DNA of 64,000 nucleotides. Origin: a virus. The position numbers were made by a program, and so were the translations under genes. The stretch lies in the UHGV virus genome UHGV-1430915; one strand, written 5' to 3'. This document shows positions 1,954-62,640 of the stretch, one piece after another; within the stretch, counting starts at the first letter, position 1, and every line of letters begins with the position of its first letter. Below the pieces are notes generated by a model. It saw only the letters and a list, made by a program, of their open reading frames with translations, was not told the origin of the DNA and made no database searches.

Positions 1954-4287
1954 TTACCAAAGATCTGTTGACATAAAGTTAATATCTTTGTTGTTCTCCC
2001 ACTCAAGTTTTGCATCAATTATTTTGTTAAACTCGCCCTCATTTATTGAAATAGTGATTTTCCCATCACTGATCTCTAAAGGTAGCATTTCCATAGTTCT
2101 TAATTGAGAAGCAAAACCAGGGCCACCTGGCAACGGAAGAGTACCGCCCGGTAAGGTGTCCAAAGGATCAACAAACCCGTTACCTCCAGATATAATATCT
2201 TTGCGAATCATATCGCTGATAGTATCCAGTTGCTGATTTCTTTCACTCAGCGGGTTGAAACGGTCATTAAATAACTCTCCGGCACTCAATATTGTGCCGA
2301 TAATGCCCAGCTTGCCAAGTATGCCAATTTTACCACCAGGTGTCTTGAGGCCACCTCCACCTTTTCCTGCCGCGCCGCCACCAGATCCTTCTGCAGTGGC
2401 TGCACCTGCTGCTCCAGCTGCACCTCTTAGAGAACTAAGGAATTTAAAGGTTTTTACAAGCATGGATGCCATGACAAAACCTTTTGTCAGGGCGTTGACG
2501 ACCAGCATGATGGCAGCAGCAAACCCTGCCCATTTAGCATAGCTAAAGGTGTCATGAAGCTCTTCAGAATATTCCTTCGTCTTAGCTGTTATGAATCCCC
2601 ATTTAATCCCCCATTCAAGGAAAAACATGCGGATCTTGACTATAGTGTTGTTCAGTTCACCAACTACCCAGTTAAGACCTCTCACAAACCCGCTAACAAA
2701 ATCACCAGAGGCATCCCACACAAATTGCAAAGTCTCACCAGTGCGGATCAGTGTATAATAGAACTCTGTTAGTTCGTCAGCCCAACGGGTGAACAGTTTC
2801 TGACGGGACAGTTCGATGAAGGTTTTCAGCCTGTTTTCTGCCAGCACGTTAGACTTCTGCATTCTCTCATAACCAGCTGCAGATGCCTCGTTCATGTACT
2901 TAGCCACATACTTCATGATCTTGGCTGTTTTAACCTCGCCTTTCTTCATCATGTCCATGAACTGATCCATGGAGAGCTCAGAAAGACCAAAAGCCTCTTT
3001 GGTGGCCTTGATAAAAGGTTCATATGCCCCAGGTAACGCTTCAGCAAGCTGTTGCTTAAGTTCTTCAGACATTACCTGTCCTTTACCAAGCATTTGCTGG
3101 ATTGCCATAATACCGCGCTGGTATTTTACCTCATCGGCACCATAAGCAGCAGCATACTGTGAGTATGCAGAGAATAGCTCATGGACCTCTTGGTTTGTCA
3201 TCTGATTTTTGGCGTTCACCGCCATCTGAGAATAACCCTGAAGACCAGATTTGAGATCAAAACCAAGACGCATAGCCTCCTGCTGGACAAACGCAACTTC
3301 ACTGTTGGCTTTGTTTGGATCTCCAGTAACAGCAGTAAGAGCAGCACTTGCCCCCTCCATCATGTGACCGGATCTGTTCACCGCAGCAAATCCAGAAAAA
3401 GCTGTATACGCAGCTGTTGCATTAATAACAGATCTACGTAAGTCTCTCAGGGCATCGCCTAGTGTAAGCGTTTGGCTGGTGGCGCTTTTAAACCCAGACT
3501 GCAGAGCTGACAGGTGGGCGTTAAAGGTTGACTTTTTCATCTCTCCGCGAGCAAACCTGGACTCTAACTCTGAGTATCCTGGCAAGCTTCCACGGAATCC
3601 AGCCCCATACTTGGCAGAAAGTCTTATCGCAGAGTTGTAGAGGTGGGTTCTTCTTGCCTCACGATCCGACATAAGCCTATTATCCATACCAGCTTTACTG
3701 TCCCTTCTTAGCTGCCTATGGTAACGGTTCATAGCCGCTGTCTGAGCTTTCACAAGATTAGGGTCGGAAGCCACACCACCCATGTTAGGGTTACCGGGGA
3801 TATATTTGAAAGATTTGGCATTAGCCAAAACTCTTGCCTTAGGTGCCTTATACCCGCCGTAAGACACTGGTGCAGATTTGGCAGCCTTTTTGGCCTCTTT
3901 AGCTTGCTGCTGGTAGAACTTACGCATCCTAGCCATTTCTGGATTTTTAGCGGTAAGATTACCCACAGCTTGTTTACGTCTCGCGTTCTCCCTACGTTCT
4001 ATTGCAGCCCTTACTGCAGCCTCTTTCTTGGCTTGTGTTACGCTCTCCCTGTGCAGTTTAGCATTTGCCTGAGATTGCTGCCTGGCAACCCGCTGCATTG
4101 TTTGCTGGGTTTTAACAGCCACTGCCTGCCATCTACTCATTGGGTTGGCTGAGTTAAAATCCTCGCCCAGTTTCCTGAACTCCCTCCCAATACTGCGAAT
4201 TTTCTCTACAGCTTTTTTGTAGGAGGAGTTCTCTATCTCAAAGCCAATCTTGTTGACTGTTGTGGCAACTATTTTGTTTGTAGCCAT
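1954..4287 (-). CDS. tail tape measure protein
   Basis: 777 aa, alpha-helical/coiled-coil composition, Gly-rich hydrophobic segment near C-terminus, located directly after chaperone pair. Confidence 0.7.
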   Translation of the reverse strand: MATNKIVATTVNKIGFEIENSSYKKAVEKIRSIGREFRKLGEDFNSANPMSRWQAVAVKTQQTMQRVARQQSQANAKLHRESVTQAKKEAAVRAAIERRENARRKQAVGNLTAKNPEMARMRKFYQQQAKEAKKAAKSAPVSYGGYKAPKARVLANAKSFKYIPGNPNMGGVASDPNLVKAQTAAMNRYHRQLRRDSKAGMDNRLMSDREARRTHLYNSAIRLSAKYGAGFRGSLPGYSELESRFARGEMKKSTFNAHLSALQSGFKSATSQTLTLGDALRDLRRSVINATAAYTAFSGFAAVNRSGHMMEGASAALTAVTGDPNKANSEVAFVQQEAMRLGFDLKSGLQGYSQMAVNAKNQMTNQEVHELFSAYSQYAAAYGADEVKYQRGIMAIQQMLGKGQVMSEELKQQLAEALPGAYEPFIKATKEAFGLSELSMDQFMDMMKKGEVKTAKIMKYVAKYMNEASAAGYERMQKSNVLAENRLKTFIELSRQKLFTRWADELTEFYYTLIRTGETLQFVWDASGDFVSGFVRGLNWVVGELNNTIVKIRMFFLEWGIKWGFITAKTKEYSEELHDTFSYAKWAGFAAAIMLVVNALTKGFVMASMLVKTFKFLSSLRGAAGAAGAATAEGSGGGAAGKGGGGLKTPGGKIGILGKLGIIGTILSAGELFNDRFNPLSERNQQLDTISDMIRKDIISGGNGFVDPLDTLPGGTLPLPGGPGFASQLRTMEMLPLEISDGKITISINEGEFNKIIDAKLEWENNKDINFMSTDLW

Positions 4288-4341: not shown

Positions 4342-4716
4342 TTATCCTCTCCTGCGCTTAGCTTTCGCAGCAGCTGCGGCAGCCTTCTGCTCCCGCTCCA
4401 TTTCCCTGTTTTGGACGGTATCTAGGAATTCTTCGATATCAAGATACTCACAGAGTTTCAGGAAATACGCCATATCTGCAAGATTTAGCGATTCAAAATT
4501 TTCCCCTTTGAAATTCTTGAGCACCCTGCACCAAAGAAAGTCGAACCAGTTAAGTGAACTGTTCTTGGCTGCCCACTCACTGGCCCTCACAACAACCTTG
4601 CTTATTCCTGCTCTTCCGGAGCCTGATCCAGATTGTTCACCTGCTGGATCATACCCATCTGCTGTAACATCTCCAGAAGGCTTCCTAAACCGTCTTGTGT
4701 GAAAAAACAGCCGTAG
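4342..4716 (-). CDS. tail assembly chaperone -1 frameshift extension (G-T-like product)
   Basis: Frame open from 4716 to 4342 in the -1 frame relative to chaperone; overlaps chaperone 3-prime region containing slippery heptamer. Confidence 0.45.
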   Translation of the reverse strand, partial: LRLFFHTRRFRKPSGDVTADGYDPAGEQSGSGSGRAGISKVVVRASEWAAKNSSLNWFDFLWCRVLKNFKGENFESLNLADMAYFLKLCEYLDIEEFLDTVQNREMEREQKAAAAAAKAKRRRG

Positions 4717-9355: not shown

Positions 9356-10210
9356 TTATGCCAGTGCAGCCTCAAAATCTTTCATCATATTTTGGAAAGT
9401 TTTTGCCTTACTTAAGGTAACACCGTGCTCTTTAGCGAAGGTTTGGAGTGCATCTTTCGAACCACTCTTGTCATCTTCGTTGTTAAGAGCTGCGGCTTGC
9501 TGCAGTATGGCATCAACATCGCCGTGAGAAGATCTTGATTCTTGTGCCTGTTCAGGATCCTGCTCAGTACCTTCCGTACCCTCCGGTGCGGTCGGACCTG
9601 GTGATTCCTCACTGCCACCACCAGGTTCAGTAGGGCCTACAGGTGGCTCCGGCTCTGGTTCAGGTTCTGGGGCTACTGTAGAAGTCAGCCCAAGATTTAC
9701 AACCTGAGAACGTTTCTTAGGCCACTCAATGGTGAAAGTCTGGGTATCTTCTGCATAAGCAACATCGCATTGCTCATCGTTTATGGTCACTTTTTTAGGC
9801 ATCCCTTCAGGGTCCCACAGATGGCCCTCTGCCACTGAAACTTTGAAAGCGGCATCTACCTCTTTAAACACTGACGGGGTGAGTGTGATATTGACATCAC
9901 CGCTTTGCAGTGTTAAAGTGCTTTCATCAAGGTTCTCTGTGAAGAACAGAAGAATAACACCCATACGGATAGTTGAAATACCAGTATCAATTGGCAGACC
10001 TGTGTGTTTTGCAATCTTCTCGAAGAAGTCTACAATCGTTCTGCATGGATAGTGAACACTGCCAATAACGAACTCTGTTGGTGGCAGCAGGGCTGATAAA
10101 CCAACATTGATTTCTGGATTGTATTGTGCTAAAAATTGATAAAAACTTAACTGATTGTTGAAAACTCTTAATAGAGGATCATACTCGACTGGATATACGG
10201 CTCTCTTCAC
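9356..10210 (-). CDS. hypothetical structural protein with PEPEPEPEP linker
   Basis: 284-aa ORF directly after major capsid gene; internal Pro/Glu-rich repeat linker. Confidence 0.4.
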   Translation of the reverse strand: MKRAVYPVEYDPLLRVFNNQLSFYQFLAQYNPEINVGLSALLPPTEFVIGSVHYPCRTIVDFFEKIAKHTGLPIDTGISTIRMGVILLFFTENLDESTLTLQSGDVNITLTPSVFKEVDAAFKVSVAEGHLWDPEGMPKKVTINDEQCDVAYAEDTQTFTIEWPKKRSQVVNLGLTSTVAPEPEPEPEPPVGPTEPGGGSEESPGPTAPEGTEGTEQDPEQAQESRSSHGDVDAILQQAAALNNEDDKSGSKDALQTFAKEHGVTLSKAKTFQNMMKDFEAALA

Positions 10211-10291: not shown

Positions 10292-11299
10292 TTAGTCACC
10301 TTTCAGAGTTGCTTTAACAACCAGCTCTGGGCGGGTGTTAACTGCCAGCATTGAAGTTTCAGATTCAATCTTCTCTTCACGCAGGTATGCAGAGTGTTTA
10401 TACCACATGTACAGTTCCTGTGCAGGGGTATTTGCTTCGTTAACATCATCTGCCGGAGCAAAGTGCAGCTGGAACATCTGATCAATACCCATCGGCAGGA
10501 TGCGAGCCTCTTTCTTAGGAATATTGCCAGAGATATCTTCGATAAAGGTGATACCTTTATGTTCAAACACACGGTATACGCTGTCTTGACCGCCAGCACC
10601 CAGACGGCGACGCAGAGGTTCCTGAGCAGAGCCGTAATAGGTGTATGCCAGTTCTACCAGTGGGTGATGGGTAATAGCACTGAAGAACTCCGGTGAGCAC
10701 AGAGCTACAATACGATAGCCAGCTGCGTTATCGCCAGCTTGCAGCGCGATGTGCAGACGAGCCTCTTCCAGAACCTCCATAGGATCCTGATCTGCTTTTG
10801 CAGGGTCAATCTCAACAGATTTCTGTTCAACACCCCACAGAGTGTAGTAGTCATACTGACAGGTGGTGTCACCAGGTGCATAGGATTTACCCAGAATAGC
10901 CTGGAACAGTGCTTTCTCACGCAGTGCTTCATGAGAAACACGGATACGGCGAACAACGCGGGTTACTACGTCCTGAACAGTTTTCGGAGCATCCGGGGTG
11001 AAGTAACGACGGAAGTTCTGAACATCTGCGGCAGTGATGCCTTTGTCCAGAGGGAAGAACGGGATGTTCAGGTTTTTAACCTGGGCACGTTCACTACCAA
11101 CGTAGTTACGCTCACCGCCACGACGGCGTGCCGGAATGTCGGTTACAACTTCATCAACACGCTCGATCTGAGCAATTGTTGAGGTGCCGAGACGGGTTTC
11201 GAACAGATCCATACCAGTAATCAGTCGGAATTGGCGCGGAACAAGTTCCAGAGTAGCACCTAAATCAACAATGCCAAATTCATCTTTACGAGTAATCAT
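10292..11299 (-). CDS. major capsid protein (lambda gpE-like)
   Basis: 335 aa, follows scaffold and decoration-like genes in lambda-like B-Nu3-D-E order; size and sequence character resemble lambda E family. Confidence 0.65.
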   Translation of the reverse strand: MITRKDEFGIVDLGATLELVPRQFRLITGMDLFETRLGTSTIAQIERVDEVVTDIPARRRGGERNYVGSERAQVKNLNIPFFPLDKGITAADVQNFRRYFTPDAPKTVQDVVTRVVRRIRVSHEALREKALFQAILGKSYAPGDTTCQYDYYTLWGVEQKSVEIDPAKADQDPMEVLEEARLHIALQAGDNAAGYRIVALCSPEFFSAITHHPLVELAYTYYGSAQEPLRRRLGAGGQDSVYRVFEHKGITFIEDISGNIPKKEARILPMGIDQMFQLHFAPADDVNEANTPAQELYMWYKHSAYLREEKIESETSMLAVNTRPELVVKATLKGD

Positions 11300-17531: not shown

Positions 17532-17608
17532 TGGTCTCCACGGAGTGATTCGAACACTCGACCTCCTGATCCCAAATCAGGCGCTCTACCAAGCTGAGCT
17601 ACGCGGAG
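17532..17608 (-). tRNA. tRNA-Pro (anticodon TGG)
   Basis: Cloverleaf by hand: acceptor stem paired, D-arm GCTC/GAGC, anticodon loop TTTGGGA, T-loop GTTCGAATC, encoded CCA. Confidence 0.8.
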
Positions 17609-17619
17609 TATTTATTATT

Positions 17620-17694
17620 TGGTGGCCCTGGGTGGAATTGAACCACCGTCTGGCGATTATGAGTCGCTTGCTTGAACCTTCCAGCTACAGGGCC
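17620..17694 (-). tRNA. tRNA-Met (anticodon CAT)
   Basis: Acceptor GGCCCTG/CAGGGCC, anticodon loop CTCATAA, T-loop GGTTCAATTCC, CCA encoded. Confidence 0.8.
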
Positions 17695-17695
17695 A

Positions 17696-17771
17696 TGGTG
17701 CTGATGGCAGGACTTGAACCTGCAACCTATTGATTACAAATCAATTGCACTGCCAATTGTGCTACATCAGC
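17696..17771 (-). tRNA. tRNA-Thr (anticodon TGT)
   Basis: Acceptor GCTGATG/CATCAGC, anticodon loop TTTGTAA, T-loop GGTTCAAGTCC, CCA encoded. Confidence 0.8.
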
Positions 17772-17775
17772 AAAA

Positions 17776-17878
17776 GGTGCTAGGTGATGGAATCGAACCA
17801 CCTATGTATTCAACGACTACCTCGTCTATTTTCAGGATTAAAAATCCTCGCCCTTGCCAAAGGGCTTACCTAGCGCAA
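17776..17878 (-). ncRNA. tRNA-like element (perfect acceptor and T-arm; Lys-TTT-like anticodon loop; about 30 extra nt before T-arm; no encoded CCA)
   Basis: Acceptor GCTAGGT pairs with ACCTAGC, T-loop GGTTCGATTCC present, but region between anticodon and T arms far exceeds any normal variable arm. Confidence 0.4.
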
Positions 17879-17880
17879 TA

Positions 17881-17972
17881 TGTTGACCATGTGGCTAGTC
17901 GGCGATGACGACTGTAACATTTGATAATCCGGTTCTGCTTCCGGCTTTCGCTTAATTACAAGGTCAACAATG
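17881..17972 (-). ncRNA. candidate small structured RNA within tRNA cluster
   Basis: 8-bp closing stem TGTTGACC/GGTCAACA enclosing two hairpins (AGTCG..CGACT and CCGG..CCGG); lacks T-loop signature. Confidence 0.3.
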
Positions 17973-18063
17973 TGGCGGAGAGTAATGGAATCGAACCATC
18001 ATCGAGTCATCCTCAACGGGACGGTTTTCAAGACCGCTTGAGCACCATTGCTCCCTACCCTCC
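17973..18063 (-). tRNA. tRNA-Ser (anticodon TGA)
   Basis: Anticodon loop CTTGAAA, long variable arm, T-loop GGTTCGATTCC, acceptor GGAGGGT/ACTCTCC, CCA encoded. Confidence 0.8.
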
Positions 18064-18177
18064 TTTATAAATTACACTGATAATGACACTGATTTTCGAG
18101 CAGTTAGTGACTAGTATAAACGACGATAAATATCAATGTCATTATCTGTATGATTTATGCATTTAAAAATATAAATT

Positions 18178-18264
18178 TGGTGGGGAGTGGTGGAGTCGAA
18201 CCACCCGAGTCGCAATGACAATAGATTTACAGTCTACACCGCTACCTCTACGGGATAACTCCCC
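18178..18264 (-). tRNA. tRNA-Tyr (anticodon GTA)
   Basis: Anticodon loop CTGTAAA, long variable arm, acceptor GGGGAGT/ACTCCCC, CCA encoded. Confidence 0.8.
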
Positions 18265-18268
18265 AATT

Positions 18269-18343
18269 TGGCACCCCGTACTGGACTCGAACCAGTGTCA
18301 ACGGCTTAGAAGGCCGCTGCTTTATCCACTAAGCTAACAGGGC
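18269..18343 (-). tRNA. tRNA-Arg (anticodon TCT)
   Basis: Anticodon loop CTTCTAA, D-arm GCTT/AAGC, acceptor with G-U pairs, CCA encoded. Confidence 0.75.
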
Positions 18344-58563: not shown

Positions 58564-58977
58564 TTGACCCAAATCACCATACGCTCGGATTTTAACCAAA
58601 CCCTCGCGGCGTTTCTGTTGACACATTACCGCTCCAGTGATAATATCCACACATCATTTGGAGAATATGGGATACACAATGAAAACATTGTCAGAGGTTT
58701 TGGTGGTGATCCTGATGATCATTACGTCCATAGTGGCTGTTGCCGGAATACTCACGGGTGGAACATGATAAACACACATGCATCTGAAGAGACATCCAAA
58801 GGAGTGACTATATGTCCCTTGGCTGAGCCAGTGAAAGAGGAAAACTTAGATTCTGAAGATTCTCCATCTTCGCTCCAGGTAGATCCTGAGGCTGATGACC
58901 TAACGTGGGAAGACATCGTAGACATCTGGTTCTCCATTATGCCTGAGCACGAAGAGTTCAGAGGTGGCAGACTATGA
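58564..58977 (+). CDS. hypothetical protein
   Basis: 137-aa ORF. Confidence 0.35.
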   Translation: MTQITIRSDFNQTLAAFLLTHYRSSDNIHTSFGEYGIHNENIVRGFGGDPDDHYVHSGCCRNTHGWNMINTHASEETSKGVTICPLAEPVKEENLDSEDSPSSLQVDPEADDLTWEDIVDIWFSIMPEHEEFRGGRL

Positions 58978-59098
58978 AGCACCGAGCCCACACAGGTTCC
59001 TCATGCTAAAGCATGGCCTGAAGAGGCAAACGTGCATAATTCCTGTGCATTGGAACGTATAAAACCCTGTTCACACTCTCATTTCTAGAGGAGATTTC

Positions 59099-59314
59099 AT
59101 GAAGATAGAAATATTTGGTGGAGCTGACAACACTTGTGGCCTGATTTACCTCGAATTCGATGAATCGTACCTGCCAGAAGTGTTAAACATGGATTCTGTT
59201 GCTGAGGCTTTGGGAGTAAGTCCTAAAGATCTCTACTCTGGTGCTGAGATTGATGGTTGGGAGGAGACCATGAACATCGATTTCAGTGAAGTAGGTGATG
59301 AACCGCTGGACTGA
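59099..59314 (+). CDS. hypothetical small acidic protein
   Basis: 71-aa ORF with GGAGA RBS. Confidence 0.45.
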   Translation: MKIEIFGGADNTCGLIYLEFDESYLPEVLNMDSVAEALGVSPKDLYSGAEIDGWEETMNIDFSEVGDEPLD

Positions 59315-59439
59315 CACACAATTAGTTGCCCGGCTAAAGTGCTGGAAGCACCCATAACATCTTCCAACTAAATTTCCTACCAACACAGTTACTTACCCAC
59401 CACACATGACTGTTTGCTTGTTTAGTGAGCAGTCATCCC

Positions 59440-59467
59440 TTGACATTCTTGCCTATCTTGATAAAAT
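59440..59467 (+). promoter_or_regulatory. sigma70-like promoter TTGACA-N16-TAAAAT reading into ORF-free region
   Basis: Consensus -35; no ORF of 60 aa or more on either strand between 59314 and 60089. Confidence 0.4.
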
Positions 59468-59469
59468 TA

Positions 59470-61810
59470 AGTTCTTCTCTTTTCTTTTACCGAGTAATTC
59501 GGGTTTTCTGTTCTCTTCGGTTTGAAGGGGTATGGAGATACACCTGAGTGAACAGGGTGAACAACCGAACCTTTAGCTATGGCATTAGCATGGCGAAGCG
59601 GACGGGTGACGAAAGAGGGGCCGGAGGACACCAGTCACTGCCATATAGTATATGGGTGATAACCTGAAGAGTCTGAATAAGTGTTTAAGTACCAGTCAGA
59701 GGAAAAGGTGAATGGTAGCCGAAGGGGGAGGGGGGTTTCTTATATCTTTAATTTGTATACTTTATATACACTTGTAAACCAATTCAATTAGGATCTGTTT
59801 ACCACACAAAGTGGATGGAGACAAATATCACCTATTAAACTTGAATTATTTATAGAAAATACCACAACACTACTTAAGTCTTTGATTTTACACACAAATC
59901 CTACAGATATTCACCCTCCATATTTAACATACTTGTAACATATCCCATACTCTACCTGTCTGATCAATTTACCCAACTACATCCCCATATTTTTCCTGTC
60001 TGTACTACCCCTGCCCCGCCGGGAGTCTCGTCATATCTGGCTTCCCAGCAAATATCACACCCACAAATATCATTGCCTGAAGAGGGTTTCATCCCATAAT
60101 ACATGCCTTACCTGAAGAGGGTTTCATACACCACGTAAATTTTTTAATTGACCTCCCCTGCCCCGCCGGAGAGGTTGGCTTTTCCCACACAGACCTGAAG
60201 AGTCGGCCAGAAATATCTGAATAGGTCCAGTTCTGCCCTGTCATGAGCGGTAGCGACTGGAGTGCTGCCAGGCGGACGGAATGGGAATACTTCTCATTTT
60301 TATAATAATTCTCAAATATCGAGGCAGTGAGGCAAATTAATAGGTCAGGCCGTTCACACAGTGGCACAACATTTGCAATCTATCTTGTGGGAGTGAATGA
60401 GAATACCTATCATTGTGAGAATGGTTATCATTACGGGCAATTTAACATAATACCCATTATGCGCACCACTGGCGATACATACAGGGATTGATAACATGGG
60501 TTACTGTTTACGCACATAACAATTATATTTCTTACTATTTGTGCGGGATATAGTTAGCAACCAATAGATTAGATATTGACCTGCGGACTTCTGACCGTCC
60601 AGACGTCTAAACGCCCACACAATAAGGGTTATACATACATTCCTGAATGTAAACAGGGCCGCAAAAATGCTACCATACCAGTTTGTAAATTTTTCATGCA
60701 GCACTTGACAAAGAGGAGAAAAACTTGTCTGACACTTTTGCCACTTTTGACACAATATGACACAATAACGGCTGTTACTATTCCATATCTCACTGTTTAC
60801 GCATAGACTGTTTACGCCTGAATAGTTTACGCCCAAACTGTTTACACAGAGATGATAAGCCATGCCATTCGTTTGCATGAAAACAATTAACAAGATAACA
60901 ATTAACAAGTTAATAATCTTTCGCTGGCTATGCCAGGTGACTAGGTCACCCCTTCGGGCGTTTATATGACATAATATAAAAGCAGGGCAACTATTAGAAG
61001 ATCTATAGTTGCCTTACTTGTTATGTCATGATTAACTAAATACAAGGCAACTATGATCTGAGTAATAGATTGCAGAAAAACTATCACGGGGGTGATGGTT
61101 ACTGCTTTTATATTATGTCGCGACTCCGTCGCGCCATGCCATTCGTTTGCATAGTTGCCTTATTGTTACAGGTAAAATAATTACATTATTAATTATTTCT
61201 TATCTTTCTCTTAGTCATCTAATGATTCCAGTCAGTATAGTAATGTACAGTAAACATTAGACGACTAAAGATTTCTCTGTTTATGATAACTCATCGTGAT
61301 AATTTCGGGCTGTTTACGAAAAATGTTGACACCTGAGCTGATTTATGTTATGCAGTTTACACGAATAATTATTTTATGCAGGTATTAACTATTCCGTTAT
61401 TCTGTGGTTGGAATAAATACTTTGCAGGCTATAGAATGGCGTGCGTACGTGAATTCTGAGATCTGGCGGCTATAGTTATACTCGATTTTTCGCGTAGAAC
61501 ACGCTTTAGATGCTGTGTAAGTGTATGACTTATAAAGATTTTTAGTTGTTGACAAGATATTGGAGATGTGCATCAGGTTAAAATTTGTGCAATAGCGGCA
61601 TTACGTGCACTTTTGGGAGAGAAAACGGGTAAAAATGGACTTGCTACCACACAATGAAAAATTATGCAATAGTTATTTTCCATGTATATTTGTACAGTAT
61701 GTGGGATTGATGGCTAGTCAATTATTCCACTTGCCAGGTAGGGCCGTTTATGGTAGGAGAAGAGCAGACAAAAAGAAAGGGGCCTAAGCCCCTTGATAAT
61801 TCAGTTAAAA
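59470..61810. repeat. repeat-rich region without convincing ORFs (candidate origin / packaging / regulatory / sRNA locus)
   Basis: Multiple direct and inverted repeat families (see findings); sits between convergent gene blocks. Confidence 0.5.
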
Positions 61811-61812
61811 AA

Positions 61813-62232
61813 TTATAATGATTCGTATATTTCAAAAATCCGATTTGCCAGGTCGTTACGGTAGCTGAATTTTTCCTCACGTTTGATCATAAGATCTTTA
61901 TAGCCGTACTCTTTAAGCACTTCATTAACTTTATGGCGGCATACTTTCATATTATCCTGCGCGTCACCAATAAATCTGTTGCTATGGTGCATGGCTTTAA
62001 TTTCTTCTTCCAGGACCAGGGCAACTATGCGGACCGGATCAAGCTGATAGGCGGTAACATCCATGCGGCATTGTAAACGGCTTTTTACGTCTGCCACCGG
62101 ATATACTGCAACCTCTTCCCCGTCAACATTGACAATAATTAGTTTACCATCGATTTCGAATCCTTTCGCCGCCGGACCGTGACAAAAAGCGTTATCAAAG
62201 CTATATGCCGGATTATTAGATTTAATGTTCAT
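61813..62232 (-). CDS. hypothetical protein
   Basis: 139-aa ORF, last gene of leftward operon. Confidence 0.45.
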   Translation of the reverse strand: MNIKSNNPAYSFDNAFCHGPAAKGFEIDGKLIIVNVDGEEVAVYPVADVKSRLQCRMDVTAYQLDPVRIVALVLEEEIKAMHHSNRFIGDAQDNMKVCRHKVNEVLKEYGYKDLMIKREEKFSYRNDLANRIFEIYESL

Positions 62233-62376
62233 GGTGTTTTTACCTCTTAGTTAATTTTCTTACAACTTCCCTTCAAAAAAGAATATAGCAAAACTGCCGA
62301 TCCCTGTCAACCAGGGATAGCATAATTTTTATGTGATCAAGGGGCTTTATTGCCCCTGACCATGTAACTTGTTGTA

Positions 62377-62640
62377 TTATTTGTTGCTCATCCAGTTTTC
62401 CCAAGCTGCCTGATAATCTGCCTCACTACGGCGGATCTCTTCTTGCTCTTCAAGGCGGATCTCTTCTTCCAGGTACCCCAAGATGTCAGCCTTTTTAGTC
62501 TGGCGTAGCATCCAGTCATCTTTTTTGCGAGTGAAGATCTTATAAGCTTTCTCGCAAACCTCTTTTTTGCTACCTTTCTGGACTTCAAGAACACGATAAG
62601 CCATATATTGAACTAATTTGAGCTGATCAAGACGTTTCAT
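62377..62640 (-). CDS. hypothetical protein
   Basis: 87-aa charged ORF. Confidence 0.4.
   Translation of the reverse strand: MKRLDQLKLVQYMAYRVLEVQKGSKKEVCEKAYKIFTRKKDDWMLRQTKKADILGYLEEEIRLEEQEEIRRSEADYQAAWENWMSNK

Follow-up and report, generated by a model that had tools for sequence, protein, structure and literature searches.

The question raised by this locus is what a phage keeps in some 2.5 kb of DNA without a convincing gene. The DNA is a stretch of 64,000 nt from the virus genome UHGV-1430915 (the window, meaning throughout the whole of this stretch), in which positions 59000-62400 were inspected and their open reading frames (ORFs) listed. The non-coding region (~2.5 kb) spans 59315-61812 and lies between convergent gene blocks, the last gene on the plus strand being 59099-59314 and the first on the minus strand 61813-62232, which encodes a protein of 139 aa. 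The phage is a Vequintavirus, an rV5-like myovirus of Escherichia coli; 122 phage records, nearly all of them from this genus, match the region at 92-96% identity, and in 98 of these the match covers at least 80% of it. In the rV5 genome paper (Kropinski et al. 2013, PMC3606486) a grey "non-coding" box is drawn here, and the passage on this box states that it "contained no ORFs" and notes a change of skew, no function being proposed in that passage.

The initial annotation of this DNA had described a repeat-dense region between convergent gene blocks, in which an origin, a packaging site, a terminal-repeat boundary, or a small RNA locus would be plausible. The convergent arrangement holds, and repeat finders recovered all of the listed repeats within one base, two copies of CCTGAAGAG being placed at 60076 and 60111 and not at 60075 and 60110. 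The region is most probably the place where the two ends of a packaged linear genome meet.

The terminal repeat and the probable genome ends

The record of phage HdK5 opens and closes with the same sequence, its bases 1-459 being 100% identical to its last 459 bases. These map to window positions 60271-60729, in the middle of the non-coding region; identity to the HdK5 repeat is ~96% over this interval, and the flanking sequences are collinear. A BLAST search at higher sensitivity turned up several records that open inside the region, four of them with a common start base. When the repeat interval was used for the search, the records of ECP2309, HdK5, EdH4, YN3, bov10K2, and bov22_2, which come from several laboratories, were seen to start at exactly the base equivalent to 60271, and four of these six (ECP2309, HdK5, EdH4, and YN3) carry the second copy of the direct terminal repeat (DTR). 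The boundaries assigned by homology are ...GGAGTGCTGCCA|GGCGGACG on the left and ...AAAAACTTGTC|TGACA(C) on the right. Within the repeat of 459 bp, CTGTTTAC occurs at 60504 on the plus strand and at 60649 on the minus strand.

The terminal repeat is already published for close relatives, with 458 bp given for HdK5 and EdH4 (Korf et al. 2019, PMC6563267) and 459 bp for Gotham (Dias et al. 2020, PMC7471380). As far as the pertinent passages of these two papers and of the rV5 paper (PMC3606486) go, the locus, the length of 458-459 bp, and the boundaries are the same as those found here; the passages give the repeat length or the non-coding mark only, and the flanking arrays and the blocks A and B presented below are not described in them. 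For KPP-1, a member of the same subfamily, a 514-bp DTR and T7-type packaging were obtained by PhageTerm, with sharp termini and a two-fold coverage step (PMC9862379). In Phapecoctavirus Mt1B1_P17, which belongs to a different subfamily, the syntenic position, again downstream of the gene for the 139-aa protein, is occupied by a DTR of 328 bp, and the non-coding DNA there cannot be aligned to the window.

The ends of the records of HdK5 and its relatives, together with the published repeats of 458/459 bp, therefore mark the region as a concatemer junction and terminus region. Judged by this homology, 60271-60729 is the repeat that the packaged linear genome has at either end and that a concatemer has once at each junction. 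With a DTR at this locus, the 2.5-kb "gap" becomes two non-coding chromosome ends joined through the repeat, 59315-60270 being, by the same comparison, the right end and 60730-61812 the left end. A function in packaging or cutting follows for the junction from the position of the DTR in the middle of the region. Among the options offered by the initial annotation, the terminal-repeat boundary was right.

The probability is estimated at about 85% that the region forms the terminus and concatemer junction of a phage whose packaged DNA is linear and ends in short exact DTRs, the mechanism proposed below being included in this estimate. Against this reading it has to be considered that the ends of this phage are derived from relatives whose repeat is 93-98% identical, and not from its own virion DNA. 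In addition, the rV5 genome is described as circularly permuted in the corresponding part of its genome paper (PMC3606486), and one 2026 Vequintavirus paper inferred headful packaging from PhageTerm.

Repeat arrays, inverted repeats, and a proposed mechanism

The distribution of constraint across the junction was determined as nucleotide diversity among ten Vequintavirus genomes, for which the third codon positions of the flanking genes (0.13-0.14) serve as reference. Diversity is 0.027 in the promoter and first hairpin (59440-59520) and 0.017, equal to that of second codon positions, in the rest of block A (59521-59745). It is 0.05-0.07 in the spacer and right-end repeat block (59746-60270), 0.068 in the terminal repeat (60271-60729), 0.027 in the core of block B (60961-61170), and 0.08-0.095 in the A+T-rich right spacer (61171-61812). 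Blocks A and B vary several-fold less than synonymous sites, and the arrays at the boundary are hypervariable. For comparisons beyond close relatives, three clades were used, namely the genus of the window, a metagenomic clade (L005, L029, L040, and others; clade 2), and phage W70.

At the right boundary of the DTR, the first base outside the repeat is also the first base of a series of TGACAY(AAT) units on the plus strand, with a period of ~10 bp (60730-60767). Two to five such units start from this base in 12 of 12 genomes, and the TGACAY core is met again in the inverted-repeat arms of block B (60967 and 61110-61119) and at 61022-61031 on the minus strand. Right behind these units, ~60 bp inside the repeat boundary, begins a plus-strand array of four 15-bp units with the core CTGTTTACRC (TGTTTACRC), located at 60792-60848 (Tandem Repeats Finder score 64). 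Among the 12 genomes this hypervariable array has from one (in phage navn) to about ten copies of units of 15-16 bp, and the distance from the end of the DTR to the first direct repeat of block B varies from 106 to 219 bp. Because the copy numbers differ, the 230 bp right after the boundary cannot be aligned among the ten genomes. Clade 2 has ACTGTTTCCACA units at the position of the array.

The motif CTGTTYAC extends beyond this array, being dispersed on the side of the right end, present twice in the DTR, and in tandem just inside the left end. Nine of its 13 copies in the window fall within the 2.25 kb of 59067-61317 (binomial P ~5e-11), the dispersed copies are conserved among relatives, and two inverted copies make up the most conserved stretch of block A (GAGTGAACAGGGTGAACA). 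No window-wide enrichment was found for TGTTTACRC with one mismatch or for GGCAACTAT with one mismatch, and for these two it is only the local clustering that stands out. CTGTTYAC may be a binding motif for a phage protein that acts at the junction, with the small subunit of the terminase as a first guess and a replication initiator as a second. Counting against the proposed mechanism, the link of CTGTTYAC and TGACAYAAT to the terminase is guesswork, and the two motifs could just as well belong to a replication initiator or a transcription factor.

Block B (60859-61152) follows as a module of direct repeat, inverted repeat, and direct repeat. It is bounded by identical 20-bp direct repeats (60859-60878 and 61133-61152) and contains a AACAATTAACAAG tandem (60882-60917), a perfect 18-bp inverted repeat (60968-60985 and 61102-61119), and the palindrome GGCAACTAT-N10-ATAGTTGCC (60986-61013), with further copies at 61046 and 61151. 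A G+C hairpin (61079-61100) and the mini-palindrome GCGACTCCGTCGC (61120-61132) complete it. Perfect 18-20-mers repeated within 2.6 kb are beyond chance expectation, and the repeat architecture is shared by 120+ relatives and extends to two clades that are more distant. In all three clades the layout runs from a direct repeat through several internal palindromes to a long perfect inverted repeat, with a GCxxC-N-GTCGC mini-palindrome behind its right arm, and closes with a second direct repeat. In the window, the arm GACATAATATAAAAGCAG is complementary at 18/18 positions and the direct repeat is GCCATGCCATTCGTTTGCAT; in L005 these are GACATAATAACGCTGAG (17/17) and GCCATGTTATCGTTGCAT, and in W70 GACACTATAAAACGAG (16/16) and CCATACTCTGGCAAT. 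The sequences of block B differ between the clades and co-vary within each, all arm pairs being Watson-Crick, and the spacing between the arms differs among genomes. Watson-Crick pairs throughout and a variable distance between the arms argue for an element that acts at the DNA level (a hairpin or cruciform, or paired protein sites) rather than for a folded RNA. Taken together, the comparison points to a DNA-level signal in which the complementarity of the arms would be under selection.

A double-hairpin mini-element of 44 bp (CTTTCGCTGGCTATGCCAGGTGAC-TAGGTCACCCCTTCGGGCG; 60918-60961, plus strand) is inserted within block B and is present or absent among relatives. It occupies this spot in four of ten aligned Vequintavirus genomes, the window included, and a different place in another genome, and a divergent relative has three to four copies of it. 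Sites outside the window are 10057, 11540, and 12492 of L029 and 9326 of L006. In its behavior it resembles a small mobile palindromic element.

The arrangement recalls that of phage T7, which reportedly has a 160-bp terminal repeat with flanking SRL and SRR arrays, phiOR and phiOL near its ends, and a hairpin intermediate. As in T7, there is a short exact DTR, a short imperfect repeat array just inside the repeat, an inverted repeat near the junction, and, some hundreds of bp upstream of the right copy of the repeat, a promoter that reads toward it. Sequence similarity to T7 is absent, the promoter is of the host sigma-70 type and not one for a phage RNA polymerase, and transcription of the genes on either side runs toward the ends and not away from the left one. 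Differences are also seen in the repeat units, which are 10 and 15-16 bp long here, with the right-end repeats dispersed and not in tandem; the arrays that resemble SRL and SRR are regular at the left end in 12/12 genomes, and the right end has dispersed repeats only. For T7-type duplication of the repeat, models with a hairpin intermediate have been put forward (PMC4281155), and the likeness of the inverted repeat of block B to such an intermediate is suggestive.

In the mechanism proposed, replication would give rise to head-to-tail concatemers with one copy of the repeat at each junction. The terminase would recognize cis sites around the junction, for which the CTGTTYAC(R)C and TGACAYAAT units are the best candidates, and would cut at CCA|GGCGG and at CTTGTC|TGACA, the repeat being duplicated by DNA synthesis as in T7-type packaging. 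The host-type promoter at 59440 would drive a structured RNA of ~270 nt (block A) toward the repeat, with an early regulatory role or one in packaging or replication at the end. In T7, the right-end promoter serves packaging or replication at the genome end. Block B may then take part in end processing or initiation, either as a hairpin or cruciform or as a pair of sites bound by protein.

The remaining parts of the two ends are occupied by spacers and dispersed repeats. On the right-end side, an A+T-rich and C-skewed spacer (59746-60000, ~34% G+C, diversity 0.052) contains TTTACCACACAAA-type and CCCATAyTyTwCCTGTCTG repeats and one copy of CTGTTTAC (59795). The repeat block that adjoins the right genome end (60001-60270, plus strand, diversity 0.066) ends at the left cut site and contains CCCCTGCCCCGCCGG twice (60008 and 60155) and CCTGAAGAG three times (60076, 60111, and 60194). 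With the copy at 59663, four copies of CCTGAAGAG lie in the region, two of which extend to CCTGAAGAGGGTTTCAT, and eight are observed in the window versus 0.66 expected. A role for CCTGAAGAG as a genome-wide signal was rejected: outside the region it has four copies, all in or near plus-strand genes, three of them being ordinary Pro-Glu-Glu codons and the fourth (59017) lying just upstream of the last plus-strand gene. CACAAATATCA-N-GCCTGAAGAG also occurs in clade 2, and in W70 it takes the form GCCTAAAGAG. Just past the stop of the ORF 58564-58977 lies GGCCTGAAGAGG (59017-59025), and CTGTTCAC (59067-59074) is found in the gap before the last plus-strand gene; both motifs also occur near the equivalent gene in the divergent clade. 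Given these motif copies upstream of the last plus-strand gene, the field of cis elements may extend ~300 bp beyond the non-coding region. On the left-end side, the A+T-rich spacer at 61171-61776 (35-38% G+C, diversity 0.08-0.095) is the least constrained part, with weak promoter-like sites and one copy of CTGTTTAC (61310), and 61466-61575 within it remains alignable to clade 2.

A candidate RNA at the right end and the question of an origin

The promoter TTGACA-N16-TAAAAT that the initial annotation had placed at 59440 was confirmed, with 11 of 12 positions matching the sigma-70 consensus and a TG before the -10 box, so that it is of the extended -10 type (TTGACA-N16-TGaTAAAAT, 59440-59467, plus strand) and points toward the terminal repeat. 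It is identical in the aligned Vequintavirus relatives, and at this position clade 2 has a promoter of another sequence, TTGCAA-N17-TGcTATAAT. In 58800-62400 there are just two strong promoter matches, this one and that at 62310 on the minus strand.

Behind the promoter lies block A (59470-59740, plus strand), a candidate structured non-coding RNA of ~270 nt. Its predicted elements are a hairpin CCGAG/UUCGG (59490-59502), a tandem GUGAACA motif within 59544-59569, CCUGAAGAG at 59663, a helix of UCUGA (59672-59676) with UCAGA (59696-59700) that encloses the conserved loop GUUUAAGUACCAG (59683-59695), and a 3' G-run GGGGGAGGGGGG (59724-59735) with predicted pairing to a 5' pyrimidine run. The clade-2 homologue is ~75% identical in the alignable 5' part, and the conserved islands CUGAGUGAACAGnGUGAACAnCCGAA, CCUGAAGAG, and GUUUAAGUACCAG alternate with diverged segments. 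The hairpin at 59490-59502 reads CCAGAA/UUCUGG in clade 2, which gives two compensatory pairs. Across both clades, RNAalifold predicts 49 pairs, 11 of them with double changes, including a closing helix in which the 3' G-run pairs with the 5' pyrimidine run, and this helix was recovered in three of four independent single-sequence folds. Extra members of clade 2 were added by a metagenome scan. In this clade an 8-bp helix around the GUUUAAGUACCAG loop is paired in 100% of cells and contains two double-change pairs (G-C to A-U), along with G-U and U-G states that would be A-C mismatches on the other strand. Its covariation score was reached by 0 of 500 shuffles and by no slid register. The helix that encloses the loop in the window (UCUGA/UCAGA) is a different one. 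The complete CCUGAAGAG hairpin is present in three of the nine clade-2 members and cleanly absent in six.

In the whole window, Rfam 15 returned only tRNAs at gathering thresholds, and with E up to 10 the region, block A alone, and the clade-2 homologue gave no match reaching E = 1, the best being 10-20 bits versus thresholds of at least 41 bits. Block A resembles structured RNAs of Rfam, including phage-associated large RNAs, 6S RNA, and self-cleaving ribozymes, in that it is of similar size and has a promoter of its own, its 5' and 3' ends are predicted to pair, and its conserved loops lie between helices that vary; it differs from them in matching no family. A hammerhead-like reading of the CUGAAGA strings was dropped, no ribozyme match being found in Rfam. 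Scans of IMG/VR and of metagenomes for motifs of more distant homologues gave only the same two clades. In the divergent clade, a minus-strand gene similar to HNH homing endonucleases lies between block A and the terminal repeat (L005 reverse complement ~2900-3640; L029 ~10600-11010); it is absent from the window.

Constraint like that of second codon positions, compensatory changes, and the lack of an Rfam family make block A a candidate new RNA. Several points weigh against it. The folding z-scores are modest (-1.2 to -2.0 on the plus strand and -0.2 on the minus strand), the structure-conservation ratio given by RNAalifold in the crude two-clade alignment is low, and the center of the block is not structurally alignable between the clades. 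Moreover, an alternative local hairpin accounts for one of the co-varying pairs, the RNA evidence comes from two clades with few independent lineages, no clear terminator marks the 3' end of the block, and a recognizable block A is found neither in W70 nor in Phapecoctavirus. From these comparisons, the odds that block A is a real structured RNA appear roughly even. The small RNA locus suggested by the initial annotation has gained a conserved promoter, low diversity, and compensatory pairs in its favor, and its support is incomplete.

The product could be an early regulatory RNA or a transcript for end processing or replication. The GUGAACA loop complements the CTGTTYAC units inside the other end, and the 3' G-run precedes A+T-rich DNA; the RNA could therefore link transcription with recognition of the ends, with duplication of the repeat, or with the priming of replication. 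The most specific proposal, in which block A would be a new family of phage structured RNA (~270 nt) that is transcribed from a host promoter at the right chromosome end in at least two clades of Vequintavirinae and serves in cis or trans as the RNA component of terminus processing, is improbable.

Another explanation is that block A is a DNA-level recognition region only, i.e., a platform for the terminase or a regulator with two inverted CTGTTCAC sites, and that the co-variation arose by chance among few lineages. It accounts for the most conserved stretch (GAGTGAACAGGGTGAACA) being two inverted copies of the motif that is arrayed on the other side of the repeat, for the weak folding z-scores, and for the center that cannot be structurally aligned. 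It does not readily account for an extended -10 promoter at the same distance in both clades despite the differing sequence, for helices kept through double changes and G-U intermediates, or for a complete hairpin that is gained or lost as a unit, and 300 bp at a diversity of 0.017 far exceed what two 8-bp sites need. This explanation is considered possible but rather unlikely.

It may also be asked whether the region is, or is in addition, a replication origin, in which CTGTTYAC iterons and A+T-rich tracts bind an initiator or the block A transcript primes through an R-loop as in ColE1, T7, and T4. The tandem and dispersed short repeats adjoin tracts of 34-35% G+C, as is the case in iteron and DnaA-box origins such as P1 oriR and lambda ori. 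Unlike those, the window has a repeat period of 15-16 bp, not the one or two helical turns typical of iterons, and no adjacent initiator gene, and its flanking proteins have no known family. A cluster of DnaA boxes (TTWTNCACA) was not found in the region, where one relaxed match occurs (59886), with none in the DTR. In clade 2, the array units TGTTTCCACA fit the relaxed DnaA box at 8/9 positions, and the equivalent of the DTR has three perfect DnaA boxes (TTATCCACA), which suggests that host DnaA may be recruited at the genome end in that divergent clade. These clade-2 boxes have the same orientation and lie within 45 bp (L005 reverse complement 4534-4573, L029 11959-11998, and L040 reverse complement 9457-9496).

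The strong promoter, with a predicted transcript that ends in GGGGGAGGGGGG directly upstream of an A+T-rich stretch, would suit an R-loop origin and may resemble ColE1 RNA II and the mitochondrial LSP-CSBII G-run. The origins of replisomes with a T7-like primase-helicase and a family-A polymerase are promoter-dependent. Both enzymes are encoded by rV5 according to the corresponding section of its genome paper (PMC3606486). The GC-skew change noted in the same paper (PMC3606486) is uninformative, because it coincides with the switch of gene orientation. An origin at this place is a tentative proposal, possible but rather unlikely, and it is not mutually exclusive with the terminus explanation. 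In the literature on rV5-like phages that was searched, no description of an origin, a transcriptome, or a non-coding RNA was found.

Coding status, neighboring genes, and significance

The coding status of the region was evaluated by aligning ten Vequintavirus versions of the locus and comparing ORF integrity and substitutions per codon position. Of 21 ORFs of at least 35 aa tested inside the region, 19 have stops or frameshifts in at least one of the ten close relatives. The only two that are intact in all compared relatives (59548-59667 and 61147-61260) have no excess of third-position substitutions, and no ORF in the region departs from this flat pattern in the ten-genome alignment. As a control, the flanking gene of 71 aa has 7/3/26 substitutions at codon positions 1/2/3. 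No ORF of at least 60 aa lies wholly between 59387 and 60088. The ORFs of the region are neither conserved nor evolving like genes, and the judgment of the initial annotation that there is no convincing ORF was right. In relatives the region is mostly left empty, with a few short hypothetical genes annotated (a 'putative membrane protein' in A51.2, ORF150 in FFH2, and multiple coding sequences (CDS) in JLBYU08).

That the region is decayed or unrecognized protein-coding DNA, made of small-gene remnants with repeats as meaningless debris, is very unlikely: several annotators have called short genes here and CCTGAAGAG encodes Pro-Glu-Glu at other places in the window, but, besides the broken ORFs and the missing third-position excess, the annotated 'genes' sit inside the terminal repeat or span its boundary, purifying selection on blocks A and B is stronger than on synonymous sites, and the architecture is kept in clades whose sequence has diverged past detection by BLAST.

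The flanking proteins gave no match in Pfam and only families of unknown function in PHROGs. The 139-aa protein (phrog_12277) has its own consensus promoter (62310-62282, minus strand), and its gene ends in a clean intrinsic terminator (AAGGGGCTTAGGCCCCTT and a T-run, 61794-61777 on the minus strand) at the right edge of the non-coding region (61777-61794). The protein is ~88% identical in Phapecoctavirus, of another subfamily, where its gene is also the first inside the left terminal repeat. As it is confined to Vequintavirus and Phapecoctavirus, it gave no lead to further genera. The gene is deleted in HdK5 and nomo and is therefore dispensable.

About 20 GenBank records (MG0656xx) labelled 'Campylobacter phage', with C. 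jejuni as host, are 93-95% identical to the region (window 59300-61900), and are probably mislabelled or contaminant genomes. Elsewhere in the window, a cluster of seven tRNA genes (17532-18343) includes one of 99 nt (17776-17874, minus strand) that ARAGORN reports as 'tRNA-???' with the four-base anticodon atcc, and the Rfam tRNA model gives it a score of only 35.5 bits. This gene could contain an intron, be frameshift-suppressor-like, or be a degenerate copy.

As far as the searched literature shows, the modular map around the junction, the CTGTTYAC motif system, and the candidate RNA seem to be undescribed. The terminus reading accounts for a gap that was left as an unexplained "non-coding" box from the first rV5 genome onward, and in which annotators continue to place spurious small genes. 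For Vequintavirus phages used in therapy and biocontrol, it provides a principled genome start at the base equivalent to 60271, and it identifies as artefacts any CDS annotated within the repeat. If the candidate RNA is real, it would found a new family of phage RNAs whose promoter is defined and whose helices can be tested. With the comparative map of the constrained, turning-over, and co-varying sequences of the junction, the poorly understood steps by which T7-type ends are recognized and the repeat is duplicated become open to testing in a myovirus.

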